NCBI GenBank assembly: GCA_947494155.1
Contig: CANLTW010000013.1
Span: 1-37,304 of the forward strand
From: Chlamydiota bacterium
Lineage (GTDB): Bacteria; Chlamydiota; Chlamydiia; Chlamydiales; RGXB01
Length of the DNA stretch: 37,304 bases
Direction of reading: 5' to 3'
Shown in pieces: positions 221-35,584 of the stretch (its first letter is position 1; every line of letters begins with the position of its first letter). The notes beneath the pieces were generated by a model that was given only the letters and a program-made list of their open reading frames with translations, did no database searches and was not told the DNA's origin. A program made the position numbers and the translations under genes.

Positions 221-313
221 TTATGGCAACGGCAATCCCCCCATGGTCTTCTTGTTATTCGATTTTTTATTGGACAATTGTTTTTTTAACCTTTTTGGGG
301 TCTTTTTTTTCAT
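221..313 (-). CDS. Small Lys-rich double-glycine peptide A, 30 aa: MKKKTPKRLKKQLSNKKSNNKKTMGG-LPLP
   Basis: Hand-translated. AAGGAGG SD upstream of ATG 313; TAA at 223-221. Same architecture as four other small ORFs in the window. Confidence 0.7.
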   Translation of the reverse strand: MKKKTPKRLKKQLSNKKSNNKKTMGGLPLP

Positions 314-393
314 ATTCTCTTTTTCCTCCTTATAATTTATAAATATACTTACTTTGTTTGCAGGTCAAGGTTTTGAGAGAACCATTTGCCTGA
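300..393. repeat. 94-bp inverted repeat, left arm (promoter + RBS + first codons of peptide A)
   Basis: Reverse complement of 567-660; 88/94 identical by manual alignment. Confidence 0.95.
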
Positions 394-404
394 GAGGATG
401 ATAC

Positions 405-468
405 ATACTCAATTTTAGGGAGATAGGTTGGAATTAGAGGTTTGATGCAAATGGTCCGCCTAGGCTAA
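405..468 (+). repeat. Direct repeat copy 2 (pairs with 7-70)
   Basis: See copy 1; it starts 12 bp after the end of the left inverted-repeat arm. Confidence 0.9.
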
Positions 469-566
469 GGCTCCGAATTTCAAAAGATTTTAGAGCCCCT
501 GATAATCACACACCGGTGTGCAATTTTCTGAATAATCAGAAGTTCCTACTATACCCCCCCCTTTTT

Positions 567-660
567 TCAGGCAAATGATTCTCTCAAAACCTTGACCTGA
601 AAATAAAGTAAATATATTTATAAATTATAAGGAGAAAAAAGAGAACATGAAAAAAAAGAC
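567..660. repeat. 94-bp inverted repeat, right arm (promoter + RBS + first codons of peptide B)
   Basis: Reverse complement of 300-393. Confidence 0.95.
592..620 (+). promoter_or_regulatory. Candidate sigma66/70 promoter of peptide B (mirror copy on - strand for peptide A)
   Basis: TTGACC-17 bp-TATTTA, conserved in both arms. The -35 overlaps an imperfect dyad TCAGGCAA...TTGACCTGA (567-600). Confidence 0.45.
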
Positions 661-730
661 GAAAAATACCAAGTTAAAGAAAAAATCATCAAAAAAAACA
701 AAAATAGTTAGCGGGGGGAAAGTTCTATAG
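647..730 (+). CDS. Small Lys-rich double-glycine peptide B, 27 aa: MKKKTKNTKLKKKSSKKTKIVSGG-KVL
   Basis: Hand-translated. AAGGAG SD at 629-634, ATG 647, TAG 728-730. Confidence 0.7.
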   Translation: MKKKTKNTKLKKKSSKKTKIVSGGKVL

Positions 731-23842: not shown

Positions 23843-26800
23843 TTATTTTTTTTCCCCGTCATACATAGTGGAATAGTAAGCCGATTTTTTTAGGATTGTA
23901 CCCGCTCCTAGAAGGGCTAGGGCAAAAGTGAACCAATCATAATCGCCCTTATTTTTAGAAAAGTATTGCGAGATCAGACCATGGGTTGCCTCTTGATCTT
24001 CTGTTGAAGCCTTCTCGATAATTCTTGCCGATACTGTTGTACGCCCATCAAATCTTCCTATCAGATCGGACCAGCCGTTCAGCGAAGGTTTTTCAAATGC
24101 TATCATAGAGGTTTCCCTTGACTGCTCTCTTTTGTAAAAGTCAAAACCGAAGAGCTCAAGGTTGGTATCGTTGGCCAAACTTTTTGCAGCAATCTGAATA
24201 GACTGAAAATGGGCCGATTTTCCGTAGGGGGTTTCCAAAAACAGGGCCGGCCTACTATGGGAATCGTTCCAAATGAGCCGAACGATAGCGCGCGCCTCTA
24301 TTGAACCCTGCGTATTTTTTACAGCAAGCATCTTATTAACCCCTTCATTGGTGTAGTGCAGAAGAAAGGGATTTTTATTTGAAGTGTGCATACAACTCCC
24401 TGAAACCTCCTCTCCACACAAAAAAAGGTCTGTCGGATCATCGGTAAAAAGAACCCTTAGGCCCCCCTCAATTGGGCTAAACTCTCTGTTATTTTTCCAT
24501 TTTTCCCATACCTGACCGGTAGTTGGATTCCACATCCCCTCAAATGGTCGCGTTGCATAACGGGAGGTATGATCGCTCAAAACTATTCTATTGGTGAGTT
24601 CTAAAAATTCCGACATAAGCCCTTTTTCTAGGGCACCCGAATAGTACCTGAACCAGGCTTCTCTCAATCTTTCATTGAGGATTTTTTTGATGAACTGCTG
24701 CTTATAGTCGTTAGACATAGCCTGTAAAAAAGGGAGCGCTTTTTCCAAAAAAAGGGGTTCTGAAAAAGAATCCCCTTTTACTACTGAGAGGTTCATTTTC
24801 AATGCTATTTGCAAAACGCTCATACGGTAAATAATCTGGTTTGCAAGCTTTTGCTTTATGGGGTACTCCCCTGTTTCCTCCTTAGAAAATTGCATAACGC
24901 TCTTAAGAATGTCCATTTTAGCTAATGGGTATATGGGGGCTGAATCTAAAATCTCTAAAAAAGAGAGTAGATTATCCATAACATGGGTATCCCCGCTTTT
25001 CAATACCTCCCCGTAATGCTTCAACAATTCTCTTAAATTTTCGGCTACAGGGGTATTTTGATAACCGTCCCACTTTTGGATATAGAGCATGGGGAAAAAG
25101 AGAAAAAATTTACCCATCTTGTGGAATTCGCTCTTCATGCCCCCAACGAGTGCCCCTTTTCCCCTCACCATAGCCCTTTCAAGGGCATCGGCCCATAAAT
25201 TGGCTATAGCGGGAAAATTGCCCCTTTTTTTAAATCTTAAGAGATCTTTAAGCTTTGAAAAAAGCTTTGAGGCCTCTTCGCCTGATTGTCCTTCTTTGAA
25301 CAAAAAGGTCTCAAATTTACCCAAAAAACCCTGTAGCTGCTGGGGTTGAAAACGGGCCAAAGAAAGGACAAGCTCGCAACTTTTTCCCCTGGTTAAAAAC
25401 TCTTCAATATAGGGTGAAGCCAAAACTTTGGCCAAAATGGTTTTGAAAAGAGGGGGAAAGATAGGCTCCTCAAGAAGATTCAAGAGCTTTTTTTTCCGAT
25501 AAAGCAGCTCTAAAAAAACATCCACTTCATGAGAGCTCCAATCCGCTTCATGAGTGTAGTCCTTAGGATTTTGGAAAACTTCGCTAAATTTTTCCACCCC
25601 ATTTTCGACCAAAAGAGCGCAACGAAAAAGGTGGGAGGCTACATTTCCAGAGAGTTTTGTCCCGACATGTAAGAAGGTGCTAAATAAAAGACTTTGCAGC
25701 TCGTTTTGTAATGAGTTTAGAGGATCACCTACGGGCTCTTTTAATCCGTAAAATGCTGTTTTACCCAATTGAGGAAAAAGGGAATGGTAAACATCGATTT
25801 GGTCTTTATCTGACAAATTTTCACACTTTGAGACGAAGATCTTTTGAACCTCATCGGTACTATTTTCCCTAAGATAGCGCAAACAACCCCCGATGTTGGT
25901 AGGGGTAAGGTGCAAATTCTTCCAAAGCTCCTGTTGATTTTTTTTGGTGCACCTCTCAAAAAATGCATCCAAAATTTCACGATCCCAGTAGGGGCGAACA
26001 AGGGAAAAAGGATCTTTTTCTCTAAAAAAAATTGTATCAAGAACGGTAGTATCCGAACGGGACAAGGAAAAAAGATCCCCAACCTCCAGGTAAGAGGAAA
26101 AATTCTCCACTAATAGAGCGGCTGCCCCTGAGGGAAAGGGGTTTTGCTGATTGAGTTTAACAAGTGTTTGCATTCCCTCTAAAAAAGGCTCCTGTGGATT
26201 CTCTTTTTGGATTGTGAGCATTGTCGAGATGAAATTTTCCCAGCCCCTTTGATCTTTTCCGTAGAGCAAATAGGAACCCAAGAAAAGAGATAGCTCTTTA
26301 TGCCTCACCATTAATAAAGCTTTCGAAGATTGAAAAAGCCTTTCAACCAGGTTTTTTATCTCCATATTTCCCTTTTCACCCTCAAAACGCCTGGCTATTT
26401 GAGCTATCAAAAGGGCTTCTCTTTTTGACAAATCGGCCTCTTTAAGGGGGCTTAAGTGTGAAAAAAAGTCCTCTAAATGGTAGGACTCATTTTTCATCAT
26501 TAAAAACTTTAAAAGCTGAATACGCGTGTGAAGGCCCCCTTTTTCGCCAACATGAAAAATCCACTCAATAGGGGCCTCTTTCAGAATATTCCAATCCTGC
26601 TTGAGCAGTTCGTCCAAGAGAGTATTTTGGGAAAAAAGGGAGAATTCAACCTTGGAAACAATTGTTTCCCAGCTCTTTTGCACTTGCGTCCAAAGGAGAG
26701 AAGTGAGCTTTTTTTCTTTTCTTGTAGCCGCTAATTTAAAAAGCTGTAGCAAAAACTTGTCAGAATCTATTTTCCATGTGCCCAAATTCTCTAGTAGGAA

Positions 26801-27424
26801 AGAGGAAAGTATGGAATTTTCCGACATAAAAAGAGGCTCACCCCCTTGGGTTTGCAAGATCGAGAGCATCTCTTGGGCTGTTTCCACCCGATTATGTTTC
26901 GCTACAAGATTCCAAAAAAATGGGGAAAAAGCTGCCCTTTGACAGAGAAACTTCGAGGCAAAAGGGGCTATTAACCCCTCAAAGCGGGGCTCTTTTACGG
27001 TCAATTTCTCTAGCTCTTCGAGAAATCTTTCCTGAAAGGAGGGGGAAGTTTGATTCAAATTGAAGGTAAAACACTCAAGACGGGGTAAAAATTTCTCCAA
27101 CAGCGAGGGCTCTTTAAGCAAATCCTCAGGATCTACATAGAGGCTCGAATATCGACCCCCTATGAGAGATTTAGGAAGATGTAGGGCTAGTTTAGCCCGT
27201 AAGTCGGTTTTTGGCGGATCAAAAGAAAAAGATAGATTATGGAAACGACGCGCCCCTAAAGCTTGAAAAGCCCCCGTACACAACAAGGGTGGAAAGGGCA
27301 AGCTCCTTAAAGCACAACACTCTAATGCTTTAGGGGAAGATGCAATATGCGACGATGCCCTAAGCGAAGACCGAAAAAGCCCAGAAAAAACAACCGATCT
27401 ACCCCCTTGCCCCACCCCTAGCAT
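23843..27424 (-). CDS. Large hypothetical protein (1193 aa), effector candidate
   Basis: AAAGGA SD; Leu-rich helical body; enzyme-like C-terminal block TDDPTDLFLCG...GSCMH...EARAIVRL...LFLE; C-terminal hydrophobic segment. Confidence 0.9.
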   Translation of the reverse strand: MLGVGQGGRSVVFSGLFRSSLRASSHIASSPKALECCALRSLPFPPLLCTGAFQALGARRFHNLSFSFDPPKTDLRAKLALHLPKSLIGGRYSSLYVDPEDLLKEPSLLEKFLPRLECFTFNLNQTSPSFQERFLEELEKLTVKEPRFEGLIAPFASKFLCQRAAFSPFFWNLVAKHNRVETAQEMLSILQTQGGEPLFMSENSILSSFLLENLGTWKIDSDKFLLQLFKLAATRKEKKLTSLLWTQVQKSWETIVSKVEFSLFSQNTLLDELLKQDWNILKEAPIEWIFHVGEKGGLHTRIQLLKFLMMKNESYHLEDFFSHLSPLKEADLSKREALLIAQIARRFEGEKGNMEIKNLVERLFQSSKALLMVRHKELSLFLGSYLLYGKDQRGWENFISTMLTIQKENPQEPFLEGMQTLVKLNQQNPFPSGAAALLVENFSSYLEVGDLFSLSRSDTTVLDTIFFREKDPFSLVRPYWDREILDAFFERCTKKNQQELWKNLHLTPTNIGGCLRYLRENSTDEVQKIFVSKCENLSDKDQIDVYHSLFPQLGKTAFYGLKEPVGDPLNSLQNELQSLLFSTFLHVGTKLSGNVASHLFRCALLVENGVEKFSEVFQNPKDYTHEADWSSHEVDVFLELLYRKKKLLNLLEEPIFPPLFKTILAKVLASPYIEEFLTRGKSCELVLSLARFQPQQLQGFLGKFETFLFKEGQSGEEASKLFSKLKDLLRFKKRGNFPAIANLWADALERAMVRGKGALVGGMKSEFHKMGKFFLFFPMLYIQKWDGYQNTPVAENLRELLKHYGEVLKSGDTHVMDNLLSFLEILDSAPIYPLAKMDILKSVMQFSKEETGEYPIKQKLANQIIYRMSVLQIALKMNLSVVKGDSFSEPLFLEKALPFLQAMSNDYKQQFIKKILNERLREAWFRYYSGALEKGLMSEFLELTNRIVLSDHTSRYATRPFEGMWNPTTGQVWEKWKNNREFSPIEGGLRVLFTDDPTDLFLCGEEVSGSCMHTSNKNPFLLHYTNEGVNKMLAVKNTQGSIEARAIVRLIWNDSHSRPALFLETPYGKSAHFQSIQIAAKSLANDTNLELFGFDFYKREQSRETSMIAFEKPSLNGWSDLIGRFDGRTTVSARIIEKASTEDQEATHGLISQYFSKNKGDYDWFTFALALLGAGTILKKSAYYSTMYDGEKK

Positions 27425-27575
27425 GTCATTCCTTTAGTGAAAACCACAACTATTTTATATGTATTTTTATAAAATTTACAGTAAAAAGGGGTGGTGGACC
27501 AGCTTTTCCCTCCCGAGGTAATTCCTATTGAATAGCCATCCCCCTAGAGGGCAATAACATAACTACCAAATCGGA

Positions 27576-27999
27576 CAAAAACACATCCAAGAATGGATGC
27601 ATGGCGTTGGGCTGCAAAATACGTTAAACGGGCTGGAAAAGTTCTTCAAAAAGGAATCTATCACTAGTTATTGGATTTGTTATGATAAAGATGTCCCCTT
27701 TGCTTTCTTCATTACTTCTCCAGAAGGTGAAGATGCTACCACCTTGGATGTATTTATCTATGATGCAAATTATCTGGGAAAAGGATCATCTGCTGCTATG
27801 ATTCAGAAAATTTCTAATAGATCATTTCTCACACATAAATAAAGTGCTGATAGACCCTTAAGCAACCAACACCCGCGCAATCCATGTGTACAAAAAGATC
27901 GGCTTTAAAATAGTCGGAGAATTTATTGCAAGCTGGCATCCCGTTCCGCACTACCAAATGGAACTTAATATGAAAAAGCTTCTGGAGACAAAGAAATGA
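27576..27999 (+). pseudogene. GNAT N-acetyltransferase pseudogene (AAC(6')-Ib-like)
   Basis: YLGKG motif A, frameshift at A-run 27807-27810, then VLIDP*ATNTRAIHVYKKIGF with TAA at 27859. Confidence 0.85.
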
Positions 28000-28052
28000 A
28001 TGTCGTCCTATTCAAAGCCACTCAAGAAGACAAAAATTCCATCCAGAACCTA
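27996..28052 (+). pseudogene. N-terminal stub of a second GNAT-like gene
   Basis: ATGA overlap with the upstream stop. MNVVLFKATQEDKNSIQNL resembles a GNAT N-terminus, then runs into the antisense of peptide D. Confidence 0.45.
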
Positions 28053-28056
28053 AACC

Positions 28057-28176
28057 TCATCCCATCCTCCTGGGAGGACGAGAAATTCTTGCGGAAGTCT
28101 CAAAACAAGCGCCACCGAGCACACCCTTTAACGGGCTTTTCTTTGGTTGCTTTTTTGGCCTACTTTTTTTTTTCAT
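28057..28176 (-). CDS. Small Lys-rich double-glycine peptide D, 39 aa: MKKKSRPKKQPKKSPLKGVLGG-ACFETSARISRPPRRMG
   Basis: Hand-translated. AAGGAG SD 8 nt upstream overlaps the stop of peptide C. LKGVLGG fits the L-x-x-V/I-x-GG double-glycine leader end. Confidence 0.75.
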   Translation of the reverse strand: MKKKSRPKKQPKKSPLKGVLGGACFETSARISRPPRRMG

Positions 28177-28188
28177 AGAAAAATCTCC

Positions 28189-28323
28189 TTAACCACAAGC
28201 CCAAGTTGAGGGGGCACATTGATCTTTAGGCCTATCAATGGAATTACCTGGACTTATTCCCCCCTGGGACTTGCCCTTGTGCTTTTTTTTCTGTTGGCTC
28301 GCTTTATCGGATTTCTTTTTCAT
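28189..28323 (-). CDS. Small Lys-rich double-glycine peptide C, 44 aa: MKKKSDKASQQKKKHKGKSQGG-ISPGNSIDRPKDQCAPSTWACG
   Basis: Hand-translated. AAGGCG SD-like sequence, tandem ATG ATG (28326/28323), TAA 28191-28189. Confidence 0.72.
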   Translation of the reverse strand: MKKKSDKASQQKKKHKGKSQGGISPGNSIDRPKDQCAPSTWACG

Positions 28324-28352
28324 CATTTCGCCTTTTGAACTAATCTATTTTT

Positions 28353-28381
28353 GATATAATATTTTTACATATAGTTTTCAA
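28353..28381 (-). promoter_or_regulatory. Candidate promoter for peptides C-D
   Basis: TTGAAA-17 bp-TATATC on the - strand, about 30 bp upstream of the ATG; AT-rich, so weak evidence. Confidence 0.35.
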
Positions 28382-28554
28382 AGATTAGTTTTAACCTGTT
28401 GAAGATCATCAAGATGAGTCTCTTTTTAAAGGGCTTTAAGCTTTTTTTCTTTTTTAAAAAAATGTATTTGAGAGGATTAACGGCGACTAATTTTTTATCG
28501 ATACAGCTTGTTAACGTTCAAAAATTCTCCCTCGTGGGCGGCAGAGATTTTTAG

Positions 28555-30027
28555 TTAATTTGTGAGCTCTTTGAATAGCTCAAACTCCCCTTCGCTAAGT
28601 TGTTGTATTTCAGGGGATAAATACTGCCATCCAGCCCCAAGCTCCTTGTTAAGCTGGATAAATTCAAGAGCAAGTTGCAAACTTTGCTGGTTCTCATTCT
28701 TTATGGACTCCAAAACAGATTGTTCCACCAGCAGGGTGTCTTTTTCAGAAAAGAGCGCATTCTTTTTTAACGCGCAGCTCAACTCAAAAATTTCCCCCCT
28801 TTTTTTGGTCATATTGGCAAAAAAATCGAGTGAAAGTTTCCTGGTTTCAAAGGCGTTTAGACTTTTTTGCACATCAAATAGACCCTCCAAAACCGCTTTA
28901 AGGTAGGCAAAATAGGCCTCTTTTTGCTTATAAGTCTTGAGTCTTAGATTCCCAATTAGCTCACCACCATGAAATATTGGTGCTAAAATGGACATGCCAT
29001 AAACAGCATTTGCGTTTTTTTGATTAAAAAATGTTCTGATCAAATTCGACAACTGACCAAGATTTGAAAACAAACTGAACTCAGGTAAAAAATTACAGAT
29101 AGCTACATTTTTTTCATAGGTGGATGCGATAAGTTGTTGTTCTTTTAAGCGAATATCAGGTCGTTTTAGTAAAAGATCGGATGGAAGGCCGCAAGATATG
29201 GTCGTCGGAGGCTTAGGCATGCAGGTTTCTTTTTCAAGAAGATAGGATAGAGTATTAGGCTGTTTATCCAGCAAAAATTCTAAGCGGAAGAGATGTTTTA
29301 ACGTCTCATTTTTTTTATTGATGAGATTAGATCCCATCCGATCCAGTTCTATCCCCCGCTTGAGAACCTGTTGCTGGTCTTGAACCCCATTTTCAAAAAA
29401 CGAGCCCTCGAAGAACAAAAGCTTTTTTTCTATATCGTAAGATTTTTGTAGAAGCCTCTCCTCATCTATACTATTTTTTAGTTCTAGGTAAGCGCGCACA
29501 ACCTCTGCAATCATAGAAACCTGAACAACGTGGAGGTTTTCTCTGGCTGCTTGTATATTAGCTTTGTCCGCTAGCATCCCATTTTGTGTACGCCCAAAAA
29601 GATCGAGGTTCCATACAGCATTAAAGGCTCCGTAGAACGTATTGAAACTTGTATTAGAGAAGAGCTCGTCAAAAATAATCGGAATTGCGGAGCTTAGGTT
29701 GTTGCGATTAATGATTCCAACAAAATCGATTTGTGGCCAAAAATTCGATTGCCCTTTGATCTCGTCAGCGCGAGCCTGCCTAACTTTTGCGGCTGCTATT
29801 TCGATATCTAAGTTAGAACATACCAGCTCATCAATAAACCCATTAAGTTCAGCATCTTGAAATTGTTCCCAGTATCTTATCCAAGGTTCGCTTGGGTCTA
29901 GAATAGTCGAAGAGATGTTTTGCCAATCGGGGGGTAAATGTATTGCTACAGGTTCGTACCCGGAGCCTAGGCGACAACCTGTGGATGAAGAGAATAAGAT
30001 AACAACCAAAAATAACTTAGATTTCAT
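28555..30027 (-). CDS. NodT/OprM/TolC-family outer-membrane efflux lipoprotein
   Basis: Lipobox-like STGC after a hydrophobic stretch, WEQFQDAELN, WNLDLFGR, GLPSDLLLKRPDI, LGAGW. Confidence 0.92.
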   Translation of the reverse strand: MKSKLFLVVILFSSSTGCRLGSGYEPVAIHLPPDWQNISSTILDPSEPWIRYWEQFQDAELNGFIDELVCSNLDIEIAAAKVRQARADEIKGQSNFWPQIDFVGIINRNNLSSAIPIIFDELFSNTSFNTFYGAFNAVWNLDLFGRTQNGMLADKANIQAARENLHVVQVSMIAEVVRAYLELKNSIDEERLLQKSYDIEKKLLFFEGSFFENGVQDQQQVLKRGIELDRMGSNLINKKNETLKHLFRLEFLLDKQPNTLSYLLEKETCMPKPPTTISCGLPSDLLLKRPDIRLKEQQLIASTYEKNVAICNFLPEFSLFSNLGQLSNLIRTFFNQKNANAVYGMSILAPIFHGGELIGNLRLKTYKQKEAYFAYLKAVLEGLFDVQKSLNAFETRKLSLDFFANMTKKRGEIFELSCALKKNALFSEKDTLLVEQSVLESIKNENQQSLQLALEFIQLNKELGAGWQYLSPEIQQLSEGEFELFKELTN

Positions 30028-31591
30028 TTTCCTTACCAGTTGTTTTGTAGATATTTGGGACAAAAAAAGCCAACACTAAGGTCATAATCATCATTCCGAT
30101 GGGTATTAGATAAAAATCAATGACTGCAAGGTTGTAGCACTGATTGGTTACCATATTTTGTATCCATTTAAGCGCTCCTAAATAACTAAAACCTAGTGCC
30201 TGCAAAGTCTCTAAGGTTTCCGCAAAAGGCAAATTTTGCATGGAAAGATTTTTCTGAAAAATTTTTTCATAGAAATCATGCCTCGCCTCATAGACCCACC
30301 TTGAAACAGAAAGCGCGATTCCAGCTGTGAATATCTCCAAAAATTCATTTAAATACATTGCGCGAGCGAAATTTTCCTTATTCACAAAAACCAAAAAAAG
30401 GGTCAAACAAGGCACCGAGGATGCAGCACCTAAACCCATTAAAATTCTGGAAGGGGTGAGGTTTTCCGGTCCGACATTTAACGGGAGTTGCATAGCCCAA
30501 TACAACCCGACTAAACAAAATCCGCAAGATAAGGCAAGCATCCATCGATGCCCAATATAAGGTAAAAGAAAAAGGAAAATCCCGATTCCTAAAAAAAGGG
30601 TTAAGTTCATGTGAACAAGCGAATAGGCTGCCTGAAGCGAGGAGAAATTCAGTTGCGTTTGAGGCCAGAGAGTAAAAAATAGCACAGCCATTTTACCAGC
30701 CGCTAGAAGGAGCAAGGAAATGATGGTAAAAACTGAAAAGCCCCAATTTTTAAAAAAATGGAGCTCAAATAAGGGATTTTTTGAACGGATATTTCTATAA
30801 AAAAATAGAATTCCAGCAACTAGAGAAATTAGACCGAGCAAGCGAATATAATCCGATTTGAACCAGCCATTTACTTGACCCTCTTGTAGCATCACTTGAA
30901 AAGGGATTACAAAAAAAGGTAACAAGAGAATTAGTTTCCAGTCAACGGGGTGAAAAATTTTTTTAGTTTCCCTTTTTTTAAAGAGGAAAAGAGACGGTAA
31001 AATGCAAAAAGCTACTAAAGGTACATTGATGAAGAATACCCACCTCCATCCTAAATGAAAATTGATGTATCCGCCAATAAGAGGACCGGTCGTGCTGGCC
31101 ACAAGGCCTGCAGCAACTGCGGAATTTAGGGCTAATACTCGGATTTCTTTTTTCACATTCAATGCCACAAGCGCTGTAACAGAGGATATAATCCCACCAC
31201 CAAAAAACCCCTGAAAAAACCGAAAAATAATTAGCTGTTCAAAACTTATCGCTATTCCACACAAAAAGGAAAACAAGGTAAACCAAAAGAGAATAATCAA
31301 AAAAAATTTTACCTGACCGATACAATTGCTTACCCAATAAAAAATTGGAAGAATCAGGCTAGCTCCAATCGTGTAGACCTGGGCTACAAAAATGGAGCGT
31401 GGCATGGGAATTCCATAGGTAACTGCTATATCCGGCAATGAGATGTTTACAATAGAGATATCCATCCATGACAAAGAAATTGCCATCCCCATACAAAAAA
31501 TAAATAAATAAAGATACCCCCCCTTAAAAGGGGGAAACTCCTCAACTTCTTCGTTTAGGGATTTACCCAGATTTTGATCTTTTTCAATCAT
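30017..31591 (-). CDS. emrB: EmrB/QacA-type DHA2 MFS efflux transporter
   Basis: MDISIVNISLP, FRFFQG, GPLIGGYI, WRWVFFINVP; about 14 TM segments. Confidence 0.9.
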   Translation of the reverse strand: MIEKDQNLGKSLNEEVEEFPPFKGGYLYLFIFCMGMAISLSWMDISIVNISLPDIAVTYGIPMPRSIFVAQVYTIGASLILPIFYWVSNCIGQVKFFLIILFWFTLFSFLCGIAISFEQLIIFRFFQGFFGGGIISSVTALVALNVKKEIRVLALNSAVAAGLVASTTGPLIGGYINFHLGWRWVFFINVPLVAFCILPSLFLFKKRETKKIFHPVDWKLILLLPFFVIPFQVMLQEGQVNGWFKSDYIRLLGLISLVAGILFFYRNIRSKNPLFELHFFKNWGFSVFTIISLLLLAAGKMAVLFFTLWPQTQLNFSSLQAAYSLVHMNLTLFLGIGIFLFLLPYIGHRWMLALSCGFCLVGLYWAMQLPLNVGPENLTPSRILMGLGAASSVPCLTLFLVFVNKENFARAMYLNEFLEIFTAGIALSVSRWVYEARHDFYEKIFQKNLSMQNLPFAETLETLQALGFSYLGALKWIQNMVTNQCYNLAVIDFYLIPIGMMIMTLVLAFFVPNIYKTTGKENEI

Positions 31592-32777
31592 CGGAAACGG
31601 ACGCTGATTTTATAAGGTTTGTGGTAATAACCTCTTGAATCCAATCGTTTATTGGGTCCAGCTGATTATCATAAATCGATGTTTGTTTTATATAATTTTT
31701 GTCTACAATAGAATGAATGAATGGGCCTAATTTTGTTGTTTGTTTCTTAAAATGGACCTTCATGGACATTCCGATCATCAAGGGGTGATTGATAGTATTT
31801 TTTGAATTTAACTTTATGATGACAGGAATGCGTTGTAAAACTTTTACCCAGTTGCCCGCCGCGTTTTCGGGAGGCAAAATACTTGCGCTTGCCCCTGTAG
31901 CTAGATTTATCCCCTCAATGTAACCGGTTAAGGGCACCTTGTCTCCATAGAACTCCGAAGTAAGTTCACAGGGCTGGCCAATGTAGAAGTATCTTAAATC
32001 AGTTTCCAAAACGTTTGCTTCTATCCTTAGATCCTCGTCTATAGAAACCATTTTTAATAAAATTTTGCCCTCAGAAACCACCTCTCCTATACGAGCAGAA
32101 AGTTCCACTATATGTCCACTTTTTGGAGCTAAAATCCGTGTATTCTTTAAATTGAGAAACGATTCGCGCACCATAGACGCGGCTTCAATGATTAAAGGGT
32201 GCTCTTCAACATTTCCGTTGCCAAGTCTTATTTGCGCTTCTTGCAAATGGATAATTGCCAGCTGGTATTGTGTTTCGGAGTTTTTTAAATGGACTAAAGA
32301 TTTTTCAAGTTCTTCATTCGGAATAGCACCCAATTTTGCAAGATTTATCCGGTGCTCTGCCTCATTTTGGGCTAATTCTAATGCAGCTTTCTGGTAGATA
32401 AGGTTCTTTTCCATTTCTTGTACCTTTTTTTGGTACAAACCCACCTGTCGCACATTTTGTAGAAGCTGGGCCTGAGACTTTTCGAGTAAGACCTTAGCTC
32501 GAGTGTCATCGAGCTCAACTAGAATATCCCCTTCATTCACATCTTGGGTTTTATGGACGTGAATTTTTGTGATGGTACCCCCAACCATTGAAGAAATAGG
32601 TCTCAAATCCCCTTTGACATAGGCGTCATCCACAACAAGGTTAAACCGACCTAAAAAAAACCAGTAGATGAGGCAAATTAGAATTAAAAGTGCAAATGCA
32701 GACGCTATAAACAACATGGATTTTTTGTTGTTTTTTTCTATAGATACAGGAGCTGTCGGATTATTTTGCGTCGTCAT
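31584..32777 (-). CDS. emrA: EmrA/HlyD-family periplasmic adaptor
   Basis: N-terminal TM, DDAYV, VNEGDILVELD, ILAP..G, ATGA...ILPPENAAGNWVKVLQRIPV (EmrA signature). Confidence 0.92.
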   Translation of the reverse strand: MTTQNNPTAPVSIEKNNKKSMLFIASAFALLILICLIYWFFLGRFNLVVDDAYVKGDLRPISSMVGGTITKIHVHKTQDVNEGDILVELDDTRAKVLLEKSQAQLLQNVRQVGLYQKKVQEMEKNLIYQKAALELAQNEAEHRINLAKLGAIPNEELEKSLVHLKNSETQYQLAIIHLQEAQIRLGNGNVEEHPLIIEAASMVRESFLNLKNTRILAPKSGHIVELSARIGEVVSEGKILLKMVSIDEDLRIEANVLETDLRYFYIGQPCELTSEFYGDKVPLTGYIEGINLATGASASILPPENAAGNWVKVLQRIPVIIKLNSKNTINHPLMIGMSMKVHFKKQTTKLGPFIHSIVDKNYIKQTSIYDNQLDPINDWIQEVITTNLIKSASVSDD

Positions 32778-33113
32778 ATATCAAAGACTCTTCACATTTT
32801 GGTATTCGGAATGAAACTACTTAAGTAAACACTCCATAAGTTTTAGCCTAAAATTTAAGCAACAAAAAAATTTATTCAAAATGGATTCAAACACCAAGAG
32901 TAGATATATGAGAGCAAAGAATTTTAAACCTTTGTTCTTAGATATACTCGGTTAGTTTTTTAGTGAAAAACCCCCTCGGTTTTTTTTTATTTTGAGGCGC
33001 TCTGTTTTCTCTACATTCAAATTGCTTCTATTTCCTTTTCAGGATTATCTAGCCATAATAAATCTTTTTGAAAATCCCAAATGAATGGGTATTAGAGGTT
33101 AAATTCTGACTCA

Positions 33114-33233
33114 TCATATCAGGCCGTCCATACAATCTTGCGAAGATGGATCAACACCGCCCAATTTTTTTCCCTTTTTTTACAATTTATTTACTTGCTT
33201 TTTGGGATTACTTGTTGTCTTCTTTTTTTTCAT
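33114..33233 (-). pseudogene. Lys-rich double-glycine peptide E with internal stop: MKKKKTTSNPKKQVNKL*KKGKKLGG-VDPSSQDCMDGLI
   Basis: AAAGGA SD, ATG 33233, in-frame TAA at 33182-33180; the frame continues through GG to TGA at 33116-33114. Confidence 0.65.
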
Positions 33234-33459
33234 AAAATTCCTTTGATTACCACTAGGGTTTTGTTGGGATCAGTGACTAGCACTTCTTGGGTTTCCAGAA
33301 TAAAGCAAGTCCCTTAGCAATATATAAATTTTTTGACAATATAGGACAAATATAAATTATAACCCGCTTGCTGTCAGCAAGATCCGTCGAGATAAAAATC
33401 ATAATTTGTATTGGAAAAGGGCTTTGGGTGCAGACCCTTTTTTATTTTTGGACTCAAGG

Positions 33460-33480
33460 CGCCCCCTAAAATAGGGGGCG
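33460..33480. terminator. GC-rich hairpin downstream of the methyltransferase gene
   Basis: CGCCCCCTA-AAA-TAGGGGGCG; a second hairpin AAAAGGG...CCCTTTT lies at about 33415-33441. Confidence 0.55.
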
Positions 33481-33496
33481 AGAGAGGTTAAGAGCT

Positions 33497-35584
33497 TTAT
33501 TCGTGGATGTATTCTATTTTTTTATCCTCAGGGAGTGTTTTTATAAACTTTTGTAAGTTTTGAACACCCATCTCATAGGTTATGTATTGCCGCTTTTGTT
33601 CATCCTGCAACTTAGGCAAGGTGTATACCAGCCGAGCATTTGGGGCATCAGCTTCGAGCTCTACTGGGTCTTTTGTAAGAACATCCAAAGTGATCGACCT
33701 TTGCCCTCCTACCTTGACAAGAGAGACAGAGGGCTTTTTGGCAATGAATTGCATTATCTCTGTGAAGGGGCGGTAACGGGGTAGAAGAAGATACTTCCGT
33801 TTAGTTTCCAGTGAAAAAATCACTTCGATGTTTTTATTTGCATCGTGGGACGCTCTTTTTTCTGCCCATTCCCTTTGAATTTCTTCTATTTCGTCATTAG
33901 GATCGTCGATTTCGACCGCAACTTTATCGGGCTCGAGGTGGGCTTCGTTAGTAAAGATCGCGCGCACCGGCAAAGAAATTGCAGATTTCGCTAGCAAGGT
34001 CACAGTTCTACTGAAAGCGCCCGGGAGATGGGAAATTTTCGAAAAAATGGACTCATTTGCTCCTAGAACCGTTTTCCAAAGCTCTTTGATCTTCTCTAAA
34101 TGAGGAAACATATAAAAAGGGGTGTGGTCAATAAAAGAGGCATACTCTTTTTCTACTTTAGCATCCAATTGATCCAATGTGGAGAGCTCTACTTTACTCT
34201 CCCAGTCCTTCCCATAACGCAATCTTGCGATCAGTTTACTAGGGATCGAAATCAGGCTGGCGAGGGAGCATTGTATCGCTGTGGCAAAAAGGATGAAAAG
34301 ATTCATTGCCATATCGCTAGAAAACAACAGCTCGCCCCAGGAAATTTTATCCTTTCGACACTCTTGAACATAGGTAAAAAAGTGCTGAAAATGCTGTCGT
34401 AGATGCCCGATGTAATCGAATCCGTAACTTGGTTTATTTTGTATATACTCCGCATATTGTTTGGAAAAACGGACATTTCCCCACTCGATCCAAGTAGCTC
34501 TTGTCCCCTGTTTTGGCCGCATCGGATCGTTTCTATAAGAGATCGCCTCCTCTAACTCCTCATTTGTCTGGGGTTGACGAATGAATGCTACCATAGCATT
34601 TTTAGTGGGATCATCTTTCAAAATAAGAGCATCGGGACTTACGCGACTAAAACCATTTCTAGAGAGGGTTTCGGCATAAAAATTCATGCTTTTAAATTCT
34701 CTTATCTCTCTATTCTCTTCGTTCCAATCCACTTTTGCTGTCGCATTTACAAACGTGTGTACAGCACTTGCAATCGCTTTTACATTCTCGTCCCCTGCAT
34801 CGTGGTCTCTTAGCAAAACGACAGCGCCGGGTCTAGCAACTCTGTGAAGAGATTGGACAAAAGGCTCTACTCTCTCTGGGGGGACGTGGTGCAGGCCCCC
34901 TAAAACATTGATTAGATCCACACTTTTATCAGCTACTTCACTACCGATGGGCTTGCACGTCTTTTTAGGCTGCAAAGCCGGATTCGTACAATCCTCATCG
35001 TTTAGGTCCACATGTCGTTGATACGGAAAAAGGGATAAAAGACTCCCTGCCTCCAATTTTTCTGGAATAGTGCCCTTCGGTAAAAAATCTGCTACGGCAA
35101 TTGTAGACCCCTTCAAAGGGAGTTTAGCCACCTTTCGCATTACATCAAGGTAACGGCGATTATAAACCTCAATATAATCCTGAAATTTTTCGCTTCTAAA
35201 CCCTTTAAGGAGCTGTTTTGCTTGACTTGCCATACCAAGTTTCACAACTCTCAAAGCCCATAGTTGGCGTAAAGGGGCGAATGACCTCTTCATCAGGTCG
35301 ATTCTATCGCAGATCTCTTTATACACCTGTTCATCTGTTTTTCCCGGATCAGCCAAAATTTTTTCCATTTCCTGGATAACTTTTTTCTCGTCCAGCTGGA
35401 AGAAAATAGTTTTCAAAAATTTCACAAACTCCGCTTTCATCTCCGCAGTTGTTTGAAAAACCTGCCTCAAAGGAGATCTATTGTTGGAAGCCTGTATACA
35501 GACTAGGGGTAAAGTGGGCTCTACAAGAGCTGGATGATGCTCCCCTAAGGCCGCTAATTGGGAAGAAACTGCACCTAATACCAT
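33497..35584 (-). CDS. Class I SAM-dependent methyltransferase-like domain fused to an uncharacterised membrane-associated domain
   Basis: SVDLINVLGGLHHVP...LHRVARPGAVVLLRDHD (motifs II/III); C-terminal half contains a hydrophobic helix. Confidence 0.75.
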   Translation of the reverse strand: MVLGAVSSQLAALGEHHPALVEPTLPLVCIQASNNRSPLRQVFQTTAEMKAEFVKFLKTIFFQLDEKKVIQEMEKILADPGKTDEQVYKEICDRIDLMKRSFAPLRQLWALRVVKLGMASQAKQLLKGFRSEKFQDYIEVYNRRYLDVMRKVAKLPLKGSTIAVADFLPKGTIPEKLEAGSLLSLFPYQRHVDLNDEDCTNPALQPKKTCKPIGSEVADKSVDLINVLGGLHHVPPERVEPFVQSLHRVARPGAVVLLRDHDAGDENVKAIASAVHTFVNATAKVDWNEENREIREFKSMNFYAETLSRNGFSRVSPDALILKDDPTKNAMVAFIRQPQTNEELEEAISYRNDPMRPKQGTRATWIEWGNVRFSKQYAEYIQNKPSYGFDYIGHLRQHFQHFFTYVQECRKDKISWGELLFSSDMAMNLFILFATAIQCSLASLISIPSKLIARLRYGKDWESKVELSTLDQLDAKVEKEYASFIDHTPFYMFPHLEKIKELWKTVLGANESIFSKISHLPGAFSRTVTLLAKSAISLPVRAIFTNEAHLEPDKVAVEIDDPNDEIEEIQREWAEKRASHDANKNIEVIFSLETKRKYLLLPRYRPFTEIMQFIAKKPSVSLVKVGGQRSITLDVLTKDPVELEADAPNARLVYTLPKLQDEQKRQYITYEMGVQNLQKFIKTLPEDKKIEYIHE

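Follow-up and report, generated by a model that had tools for sequence, protein, structure and literature searches.

Small genes with lysine-rich double-glycine leaders in a Chlamydiota genome and their candidate C39 exporters

Peptide genes of the window

The window, that is, the whole stretch of DNA analysed here, is a 37,304-nucleotide (nt) contig (C13) of a Chlamydiota bacterium whose own genome (G000) comprises 1.41 Mb in 24 contigs with 42% GC. It carries five small open reading frames (ORFs), genes A to E, whose deduced products have a lysine-rich leader ending in Gly-Gly (GG), and three of them (C, D, and E) lie around an operon for a putative efflux pump of the EmrA-EmrB-TolC type (Table 1). 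A first-pass annotation of this DNA had described five such ORFs, each preceded by a Shine-Dalgarno (SD) sequence and each with a different core after the GG. Genes A to D were found to be intact, each with an MKKK start (preceded in C by a further Met), and gene E was confirmed as a frame of the same kind that is interrupted by a TAA codon. An AAGG/AGGAG-type SD sequence was present about 5-14 nt from the ATG in all five genes. Genes C, D, and E are all encoded on the minus strand and are co-oriented with the efflux operon, as had been stated.

The leader of gene C, counted from the MKKK start, consists of 22 amino acids (aa); its GG is encoded at 28258-28263 and is followed by a 22-aa core with two Cys residues. 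Genes C and D were matched by the A1 profile with E values of 4.6e-10 and 1.8e-11, respectively. A run of ten adenines (A10, 28164-28173) lies immediately 3' of the ATG of gene D. The frame of gene E contains 17 codons from 33233, the TAA, eight further leader residues ending in KKLGG, and a 13-residue tail reaching 33114.

Genes A and B are divergently oriented. Their starts lie in an inverted duplication, the arms of which are 94 nt each, 94% complementary, and separated by 173 nt, and the 100 nt upstream of gene B are almost identical to the sequence upstream of gene A. A 70-nt direct repeat (1-70 and 399-468, 89% identical) adjoins this duplication, and the region 1-800 as a whole resembles a recently rearranged patch.

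The genes had been called unannotated, which does not hold for three of them: gene A is annotated as a protein on this contig in NCBI/ENA, and genes C and D are annotated on another ENA contig. The leader models of NCBIfam (at E values up to 10) and Pfam gave no match to any of the 16 family members described below.

A scattered family far above chance frequency

G000 was scanned throughout for the motif M[KQ]K-x(12-26)-GG with a Lys content of 35% or more. The scan gave 17 matches, all inside the 141 kb outside ORFs of at least 120 aa; since two of these are overlapping frames of one stretch, they correspond to 16 loci. In the comparison with composition-matched DNA that had been proposed for these genes, the mean over 12 whole-genome order-3 Markov simulations was 0.17 matches, and each of 100 simulations trained on intergenic DNA gave 0, against the 17 observed. 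The family therefore exists far above chance frequency, and it is a lineage-specific set of about twenty small genes, made up of 16 intact loci and about four looser or broken copies scattered over about 12 sites.

Statistics were obtained from 17 tabulated members. The GG was located at residues 19-27 in 17/17 and, besides the MKK start, was the sole near-invariant internal column; all 17 thus have a GG leader of the expected length of about 15-30 aa. An SD-like site preceded 15/17. The leaders (20-27 aa) contained 42% Lys, no Cys, and 3% Asp plus Glu, in agreement with the earlier description of leaders nearly free of acidic residues. The cores contained 5.3% Cys; the corresponding values were 1.15% for long ORFs (p 3e-7) and 2.7% for random small ORFs (p 0.008). 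Their Gly content was 12.4%, compared with 5.2% (p 5e-7), and their composition departed from that of random small ORFs in Gly, Asp, and Cys. Both Cys and Ser/Thr were present in 11/17 cores, and the tails of A and B had neither.

The genes neighbouring about 9 of the ~12 sites encode ankyrin, F-box, patatin, kinase, CesT, DnaA, FabI-like, and radical SAM proteins. The densest cluster was found on contig C17 (22759-26046), where five members, four of them in tandem, occupy 3.3 kb with no exporter nearby; two of the tandem members have almost identical upstream and start sequences. On contig C10, surrounded by ORFs that match no family, a truncated copy of gene C is located at 31412-31480, in which the first 19 residues are alike save one change and are followed by a stop.

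Two C39 exporters and a putative maturation island

The first-pass annotation had noted that the window contains no C39 transporter and that the neighbour is an MFS-type tripartite pump. A search with PF03412 indeed found no C39 domain on the window contig; however, the same search of the whole genome found two genes encoding C39 proteins of 737 and 740 aa, on contigs C5 and C8, one of them in an operon headed by a family member. Each lies in a cassette of HlyD, C39-PCAT, and second ABC genes, the best NCBIfam matches of which are the NHLP bacteriocin export set TIGR03794/03796/03797, in the right order. The C8 cassette scored just below the curated cut-offs (TIGR03796, 833 against 853.3 bits; TIGR03797, 690.9 against 709.4; TIGR03794, 145.3 against 156.2).

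The C39 domain of the C8 PCAT aligned with LahT150 (6mpz) with an E value of 1.5e-42 and about 58% identity in the aligned stretch. Its Gln30, Cys36, His109, and Asp125 correspond to Gln21, Cys27, His101, and Asp117 of LahT, and all four residues are invariant between the C5 and C8 paralogues. The catalytic Cys, His, and Asp are thus intact in both transporters.

The operon on contig C8 consists, in order, of a family member (54825-54941), genes for proteins of 156 aa, 187 aa, and 535 aa (DUF4135), HlyD, PCAT, and ABC2. The core of this member has Thr and Ser and no Cys. The 535-aa LanM-like protein had no matches beyond DUF4135 and the initial ~290 positions of TIGR03897; it is therefore not a bifunctional LanM with a cyclase, and a search across G000 for a LanC-like cyclase (PF05147) found none. 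The island (C8, 42739-58401) is encoded on the minus strand and lies between the adaptor and permease genes of a plus-strand RND efflux operon, as if inserted there.

We also looked for other possible substrates of the two exporters. Six-frame searches of G000 gave no match to Nif11 leaders (TIGR03798) and, for NHLP leaders (TIGR03793), only a match with an E value of 0.11 inside a 314-aa frame. A regular expression for the canonical leader, LxxxELxxIxGG, gave only four chance-like matches in G000. The Lys-rich family is therefore the sole candidate substrate set found.

Table 1 Locations of the peptide genes, efflux genes, and exporter cassettes. Positions without a contig name refer to the window.
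Feature	Location	Strand	Description
Gene A	221-313	-	30-aa ORF; 26-aa leader ending in GG; 4-aa tail
Gene B	647-730	+	27-aa ORF; 24-aa leader ending in GG; 3-aa tail
Inverted duplication	300-660		Arms 300-393 and 567-660; carry the promoters, SD sequences, and starts of A and B
Gene D	28057-28176	-	39-aa ORF; 22-aa leader ending in VLGG; 17-aa core with one Cys
Gene C	28189-28326	-	45-aa ORF with MMKKK start; MKKK start at 28323
NodT/TolC-type outer-membrane factor	28555-30063	-	OEP; TIGR01845, 173.5 bits (below cut-off of 210)
DHA2/EmrB-like MFS permease	30017-31591	-	MFS_1; TIGR00711, 193.6 bits (below cut-off of 230.2)
EmrA-like periplasmic adaptor	31584-32777	-	Pfam HlyD_3, HlyD_D23; NCBIfam EmrA, 265.7 bits (below cut-off of 563)
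Gene E	33114-33233	-	Broken by in-frame TAA at 33180-33182
HlyD / C39-PCAT / second-ABC cassette	C5, 58122-64405
HlyD / C39-PCAT / second-ABC cassette	C8, 45482-51756
Intact members outside the window	C1, C7, C8, C10 (two), C14, C17 (five in 3.3 kb), C18		Found by motif scan
Looser member	C14, 6845
Broken copies	C10, 31412; C18, 20568

Distribution, orthologues, and alleles

A profile built from 16 members was run over 41 genomes of the same order, G000 included. It gave 16 matches in G000, one in G002, two in G006, and nothing credible in any other genome (none in G001, G003, G004, and G005). Genes A and B escaped this profile in G000 itself; short members elsewhere could likewise be missed, and its negatives in the relatives are accordingly weak for such members. 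Among 1.84 billion representative proteins, only six matches were obtained, five from G000 and one an allele of gene C.

Among the genomes of the genus, DUF4135 was detected in G000 and G006 alone, which are also those with more than one member. No Lys-rich GG ORFs were found at the DUF4135 loci of five other families (G013, G016, G017, G026, and G030) and of G037, and the surroundings of the PCATs of G001, G003, G010, G013, G014, and G016 yielded none but two unconvincing ORFs.

Orthologues and alleles were compared for two members. The member on contig C7 has a copy in G002 (contig C176 of that genome), from which it differs at 6/72 nt of the leader (three of the changes synonymous), at 10 positions in the 100 nt upstream, and at about 10/42 nt of the core (~24%); the core difference includes an in-frame 3-nt indel in the G-run at the GG, and both Cys residues are kept. 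For gene C, contigs of four other lake samples contain an allele with an identical leader and a core carrying five substitutions, in frame, with the second Cys lost, and a third allele with the same leader was present in protein libraries, the core changes across the two alleles being 5-6. The GG and the reading frame are thus kept in orthologues and alleles while the cores change, which is what had been expected of a genuine GG position. Downstream of the stop of the C7 member, inspection of the alignment by eye showed a hairpin of 12 perfectly paired bp and then a T-rich stretch; the arrangement is terminator-like and is kept in G002.

In G006, the sister genome, two contigs overlap at their ends in this place, and on them gene E is open, with TCG CAA in place of the TTG TAA of the window; gene E is therefore a recent pseudogene in G000. 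The G006 copy (contig C176 of that genome) has a 36-nt in-frame duplication of the leader end, giving two KKLGG sites. The G006 contigs C102, C155, C176, and C135 end at all three peptide sites of the window (~785, 28383, and 33167-33209), and the DNA run X2 is broken into seven contigs over genes C and D. Such contig breaks at the peptide sites fit the presence of several alleles per population.

Possible function of the peptides

We lean towards the explanation that the peptides are precursors cut after the GG by the two NHLP-type C39 exporters, that their cores are secreted, and that their position around the pump is incidental. The Lys-rich leader would be removed after the conserved Gly-Gly by the C39 domain of either PCAT, and the core would be exported via HlyD/PCAT and one of the five TolC-type channels of the genome. 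Ser/Thr residues in some cores may be dehydrated beforehand by the cyclase-less LanM-type enzyme of the island, and the secreted cores may be antagonistic, signalling, or host-directed. One maturation and export set would serve many scattered precursors in a prochlorosin-like manner. Contigs from other lake-sample runs were mapped onto positions 27400-28433 of the window; four runs gave allele data for genes D and C, and in all three metatranscriptome runs, from three studies, contigs of the RNA libraries covered D and C wholly or partly (27898-28275, 27899-28290, and 28072-28433).

Several observations weigh against this explanation. The RNA-library contigs carry no information on strand, transcript ends, or level, and DNA carry-over is possible. 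The part at 27400-27749 had no cover by RNA contigs, which is evidence neither way. Only 1/16 loci adjoins an exporter, and the tails of genes A and B would be merely four and three residues. C39 PCATs were found in 11/41 genomes, including G001 (two copies) and G003 (one copy), both of which lack a profile-found member, so the presence of a PCAT is not specific to the family. The A-run of gene D is two letters shorter (A8) in 4/4 other lake-sample runs, which ends the frame after four codons; the intact form was seen in the window and on a second ENA contig, which encodes an identical protein. This difference in run length could reflect strain decay or on/off switching by homopolymer length. 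Some members may be decaying, since the frame of gene D is broken in 4/4 runs and gene E and two other copies are broken.

The leaders themselves raise a further difficulty. The protease requires hydrophobic residues at -4, -7, and -12 of canonical GG leaders, which have an acidic, amphipathic character, and LahT150, which needs these residues, fails when they are replaced by basic or acidic ones (PMC6363468). In the present family, position -4 is Val, Ile, or Leu in 9/17 members, position -7 is hydrophobic in only 2/17 and Lys in 8/17, and positions -7 and -12 are mostly Lys or polar, so that neither the hydrophobic pattern nor the acidic amphipathic character of canonical leaders was observed. 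Gene D fits the LahT rule best (Val at -4 and Leu at -7) and gene C worst (Ser at -4 and Lys at -7). Judged from their residues, the family leaders do not conform to the rule by which the nearest C39 domain of solved structure recognizes its substrates; many of the members make poor substrates, unless recognition works differently here. Complex prediction with residues 1-170 of the C8 PCAT and the family alignment gave a score of 0.01 and hence no answer, which counts neither way on binding.

A more far-reaching version is doubtful, and we put it forward tentatively. An obligate intracellular bacterium of lake protists would possess about 20 fast-evolving secreted peptides, and its NHLP-type exporters, together with the LanM-like and AhpD-like enzymes of the island, would read the poly-Lys leader in a new, probably electrostatic way. 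A new mode of recognition would be needed because a poly-Lys leader cannot use hydrophobic knobs-into-holes recognition. The genes would turn over by core replacement, in-frame indels, nonsense mutations, and on/off changes of A-runs. Three full-length TLC nucleotide transporters were found by family search in G000, and together with the effector-like neighbours of the peptide genes they fit an intracellular lifestyle; Chlam_PMP was searched for in G000 and not found.

The first alternative, which we consider unlikely, is that the products are uncleaved small basic proteins, binding nucleic acids or membranes or directed to the host (with poly-Lys resembling a nuclear localization signal, and perhaps with type III secretion), and that the GG is a hinge. 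The hydrophobic residues at -7/-12 needed by C39 domains are missing from the leaders, most members are distant from any exporter, and the host is an intracellular bacterium with effector genes of a eukaryote-like kind, in whose genome F-box, ankyrin, and CesT genes adjoin members and three TLC transporters are encoded. The constant spacing between start and GG, with unrelated sequence beyond the GG, is, however, characteristic of a processing site and not of a domain that folds or binds. Furthermore, one member heads a maturation and export operon, and genes A and B would encode little beyond the leader.

Comparison with known systems

The layout resembles that of prochlorosin-type systems in several respects: precursors with similar GG-ended leaders and unlike cores are scattered over a small genome, with one LanM-family enzyme and an NHLP-type HlyD/PCAT/ABC2 cassette elsewhere. 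The NHLP export cassette was described by Haft et al. 2010 (PMC2887384), along with the expansion by paralogy of Nif11-type precursors that accompany lanthionine machinery in cyanobacteria. The present family differs in that its leaders are short (20-27 aa) and 42% Lys and match no Nif11 or NHLP model (0/16 members), in that its LanM-like protein has the dehydratase part only, with no LanC-like cyclase found in the genome, and in that the host is an intracellular-type bacterium rather than a free-living cyanobacterium.

With the GG-leader peptides of class II bacteriocins and microcins (LahT, ComA, and PCAT1), the family shares the GG junction, the short peptide, C39 exporters with Cys, His, and Asp, and the need for a TolC-type channel; the colicin V system CvaAB-TolC is a microcin export system of this double-glycine kind. 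Canonical leaders of this group are acidic and amphipathic, whereas those of the family are basic, with mostly Lys or polar residues at -7/-12, and neither an immunity gene nor an adjacent transporter accompanies the five genes of the window. The GG-leader precursors of Bacteroidota (TIGR04149 type) are alike in the MKK start, the GG end, and the many paralogues per genome. Their leaders are not known to be poly-lysine, and they accompany radical-SAM enzymes; furthermore, no NCBIfam model matched any of the 16 members at the E values given above.

No published account of the family, or of a Lys-rich, basic, or cationic GG leader type, was found in the literature searched, the coverage of which left out subscription journals. 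The genes had been interpreted as an undescribed secreted-peptide system; the precursor-like layout and a leader type for which we found no published description are borne out, and the notion of a system that lacks a C39 exporter and is tied to an MFS pump is not. No library model matches any member, and annotation by gene finders and family libraries overlooks the class as a whole. Ribosomal secreted peptides have hardly been described in obligate intracellular bacteria, chlamydia-like ones included, and the usual view of double-glycine leaders is that they are recognized as a hydrophobic, acidic helix. If the cleavage is true, the rules of leader recognition by PCATs would be widened, the engineering of peptides that are made on ribosomes and modified afterwards (RiPPs) would gain a new short leader, and an intracellular symbiont would be seen to invest in fast-diversifying secreted peptides against competitors or its host.

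The efflux pump and the remaining alternatives

The pump has the adaptor, DHA2 permease, and outer-membrane factor order of EmrAB-TolC systems. Its best NCBIfam matches (EmrA, EmrB-type DHA2, and NodT) are of the type assigned in the first-pass annotation but all score below the curated cut-offs, and the operon differs from known pumps of this kind in being accessory (G000 and G006 only). Genes C and D lie 229 nt downstream of the outer-membrane-factor gene; on the other side, about 340-460 nt upstream of the adaptor gene, is gene E. In G006, the adaptor, permease, and channel are 94%, 90%, and 89% identical, respectively, and gene E is there too. An orthologue of the permease was found only in G006; the other 39 relatives searched contained paralogues of at most 31% identity, which correspond to the second EmrB-type operon of G000 on contig C15, or nothing. 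The pump block thus belongs to the accessory DNA of the lineage formed by G000 and G006. Its GC content (37-40%, compared with 41-45% for the flanking DNA) points the same way but does not decide the matter. Nothing equivalent to the block of E, pump, and C/D was found in G001, G003, and G005, which share only a small acetyltransferase-like gene beside gene D.

The peptides had been linked to this pump, and a tie of that sort, in which the EmrA/EmrB/outer-membrane-factor pump either serves as exporter of C, D, and E (or of what is made from them) or protects the producer from them, is somewhat less probable than the uncleaved proteins considered above. Genes C/D and E flank the operon closely and on the same strand, the whole block is accessory, with the pump and a copy of E only in G006, and diderm PCAT/HlyD systems require a TolC-type channel (PMC6363468). 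In addition, the member at C8:54825 lies 251 nt from an RND permease gene, so that 3/~12 sites touch efflux genes, which is above a rough expectation. This estimate is post hoc and rests on two independent loci, and the C8 case is accounted for by the insertion of the island into the RND operon. Only the C/D and E sites of the ~12 touch the window's pump, and about 9/12 lie beside unrelated genes. The motif scan found no member at the C15 operon, the profile found no credible members in the same-genus genomes that carry only the C15-type paralogue, and 80 distant metagenome EmrB loci (relatives of at most 34% identity, 685 kb), used as a negative control, gave 0 motif matches. Five OEP genes are present in G000 (contigs C4, C5, C8, C13, and C15), so the channel of the window is not special, and gene E is broken in G000 while the pump is intact. 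No result of this analysis ties EmrAB-TolC-type pumps to GG-leader peptides, and co-location with emrAB-tolC loci thus gave no support for the proposed link; the position of the peptides around the pump is probably incidental, and the observations can be accounted for with no functional link to it.

Less probable again is that most of the ORFs are non-functional, that is, young or decaying by-products of A-rich duplicated intergenic DNA, with at most the island precursor in use. The nonsense codon of gene E, the frameshift of gene D in 4/4 other populations, the broken copies at C10:31412 and C18:20568, and the tails of 3-4 residues in A and B would be consistent with this, as would the restriction to one narrow lineage, with six matches among 1.84 billion proteins, and the ends of G006 contigs at all three peptide sites of the window. 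Nevertheless, start, SD sequence, GG, and open tail are kept at 16 intact loci, core indels are in frame, and the Gly, Asp, and Cys contents of the cores are unlike those of random small ORFs. Both Cys residues are kept in the C7/G002 pair despite ~24% nucleotide divergence of the core, and RNA-library contigs cover genes C and D. The idea of cis-acting leader ORFs, in which the AAA runs of poly-Lys stall or slide ribosomes and gene E regulates the pump, is very improbable: gene E is upstream of and co-oriented with emrA, and A8-A10 runs, the kind on which ribosomes slide, directly follow the ATG, but genes C and D are downstream of the operon and convergent with the next gene, A and B are mutually divergent, most members have no co-oriented gene directly downstream, and attenuation needs neither a conserved GG nor a variable tail of 10-30 codons.

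Other features of the window

RNA folding of the 76-86 nt downstream of genes D, E, A, and B gave no structure that beat shuffled sequences (z from -0.9 to +0.9), and a promoter/terminator scan of 27800-33600 gave seven promoter-like sites, against 14 expected in shuffles. A promoter-like site, CTGACA-17-TATATT, is located about 115 nt upstream of gene E.

The acetyltransferase-like gene beside gene D (27597-27999) is split into ORFs of 81 aa and 37 aa, and it looks broken because its homologue in G001 is a single 131-aa ORF. A truncated GNAT gene at the island border was considered and dropped, because the 60-aa ORF antisense to gene D (27996-28178) has no homologue in related loci. Two large ORFs flank the region, at 23843-27424 (1193 aa) and 33497-35584 (695 aa); they matched no Pfam or NCBIfam family beyond a sub-threshold methyltransferase match, and the 695-aa ORF is 99% identical in G006.

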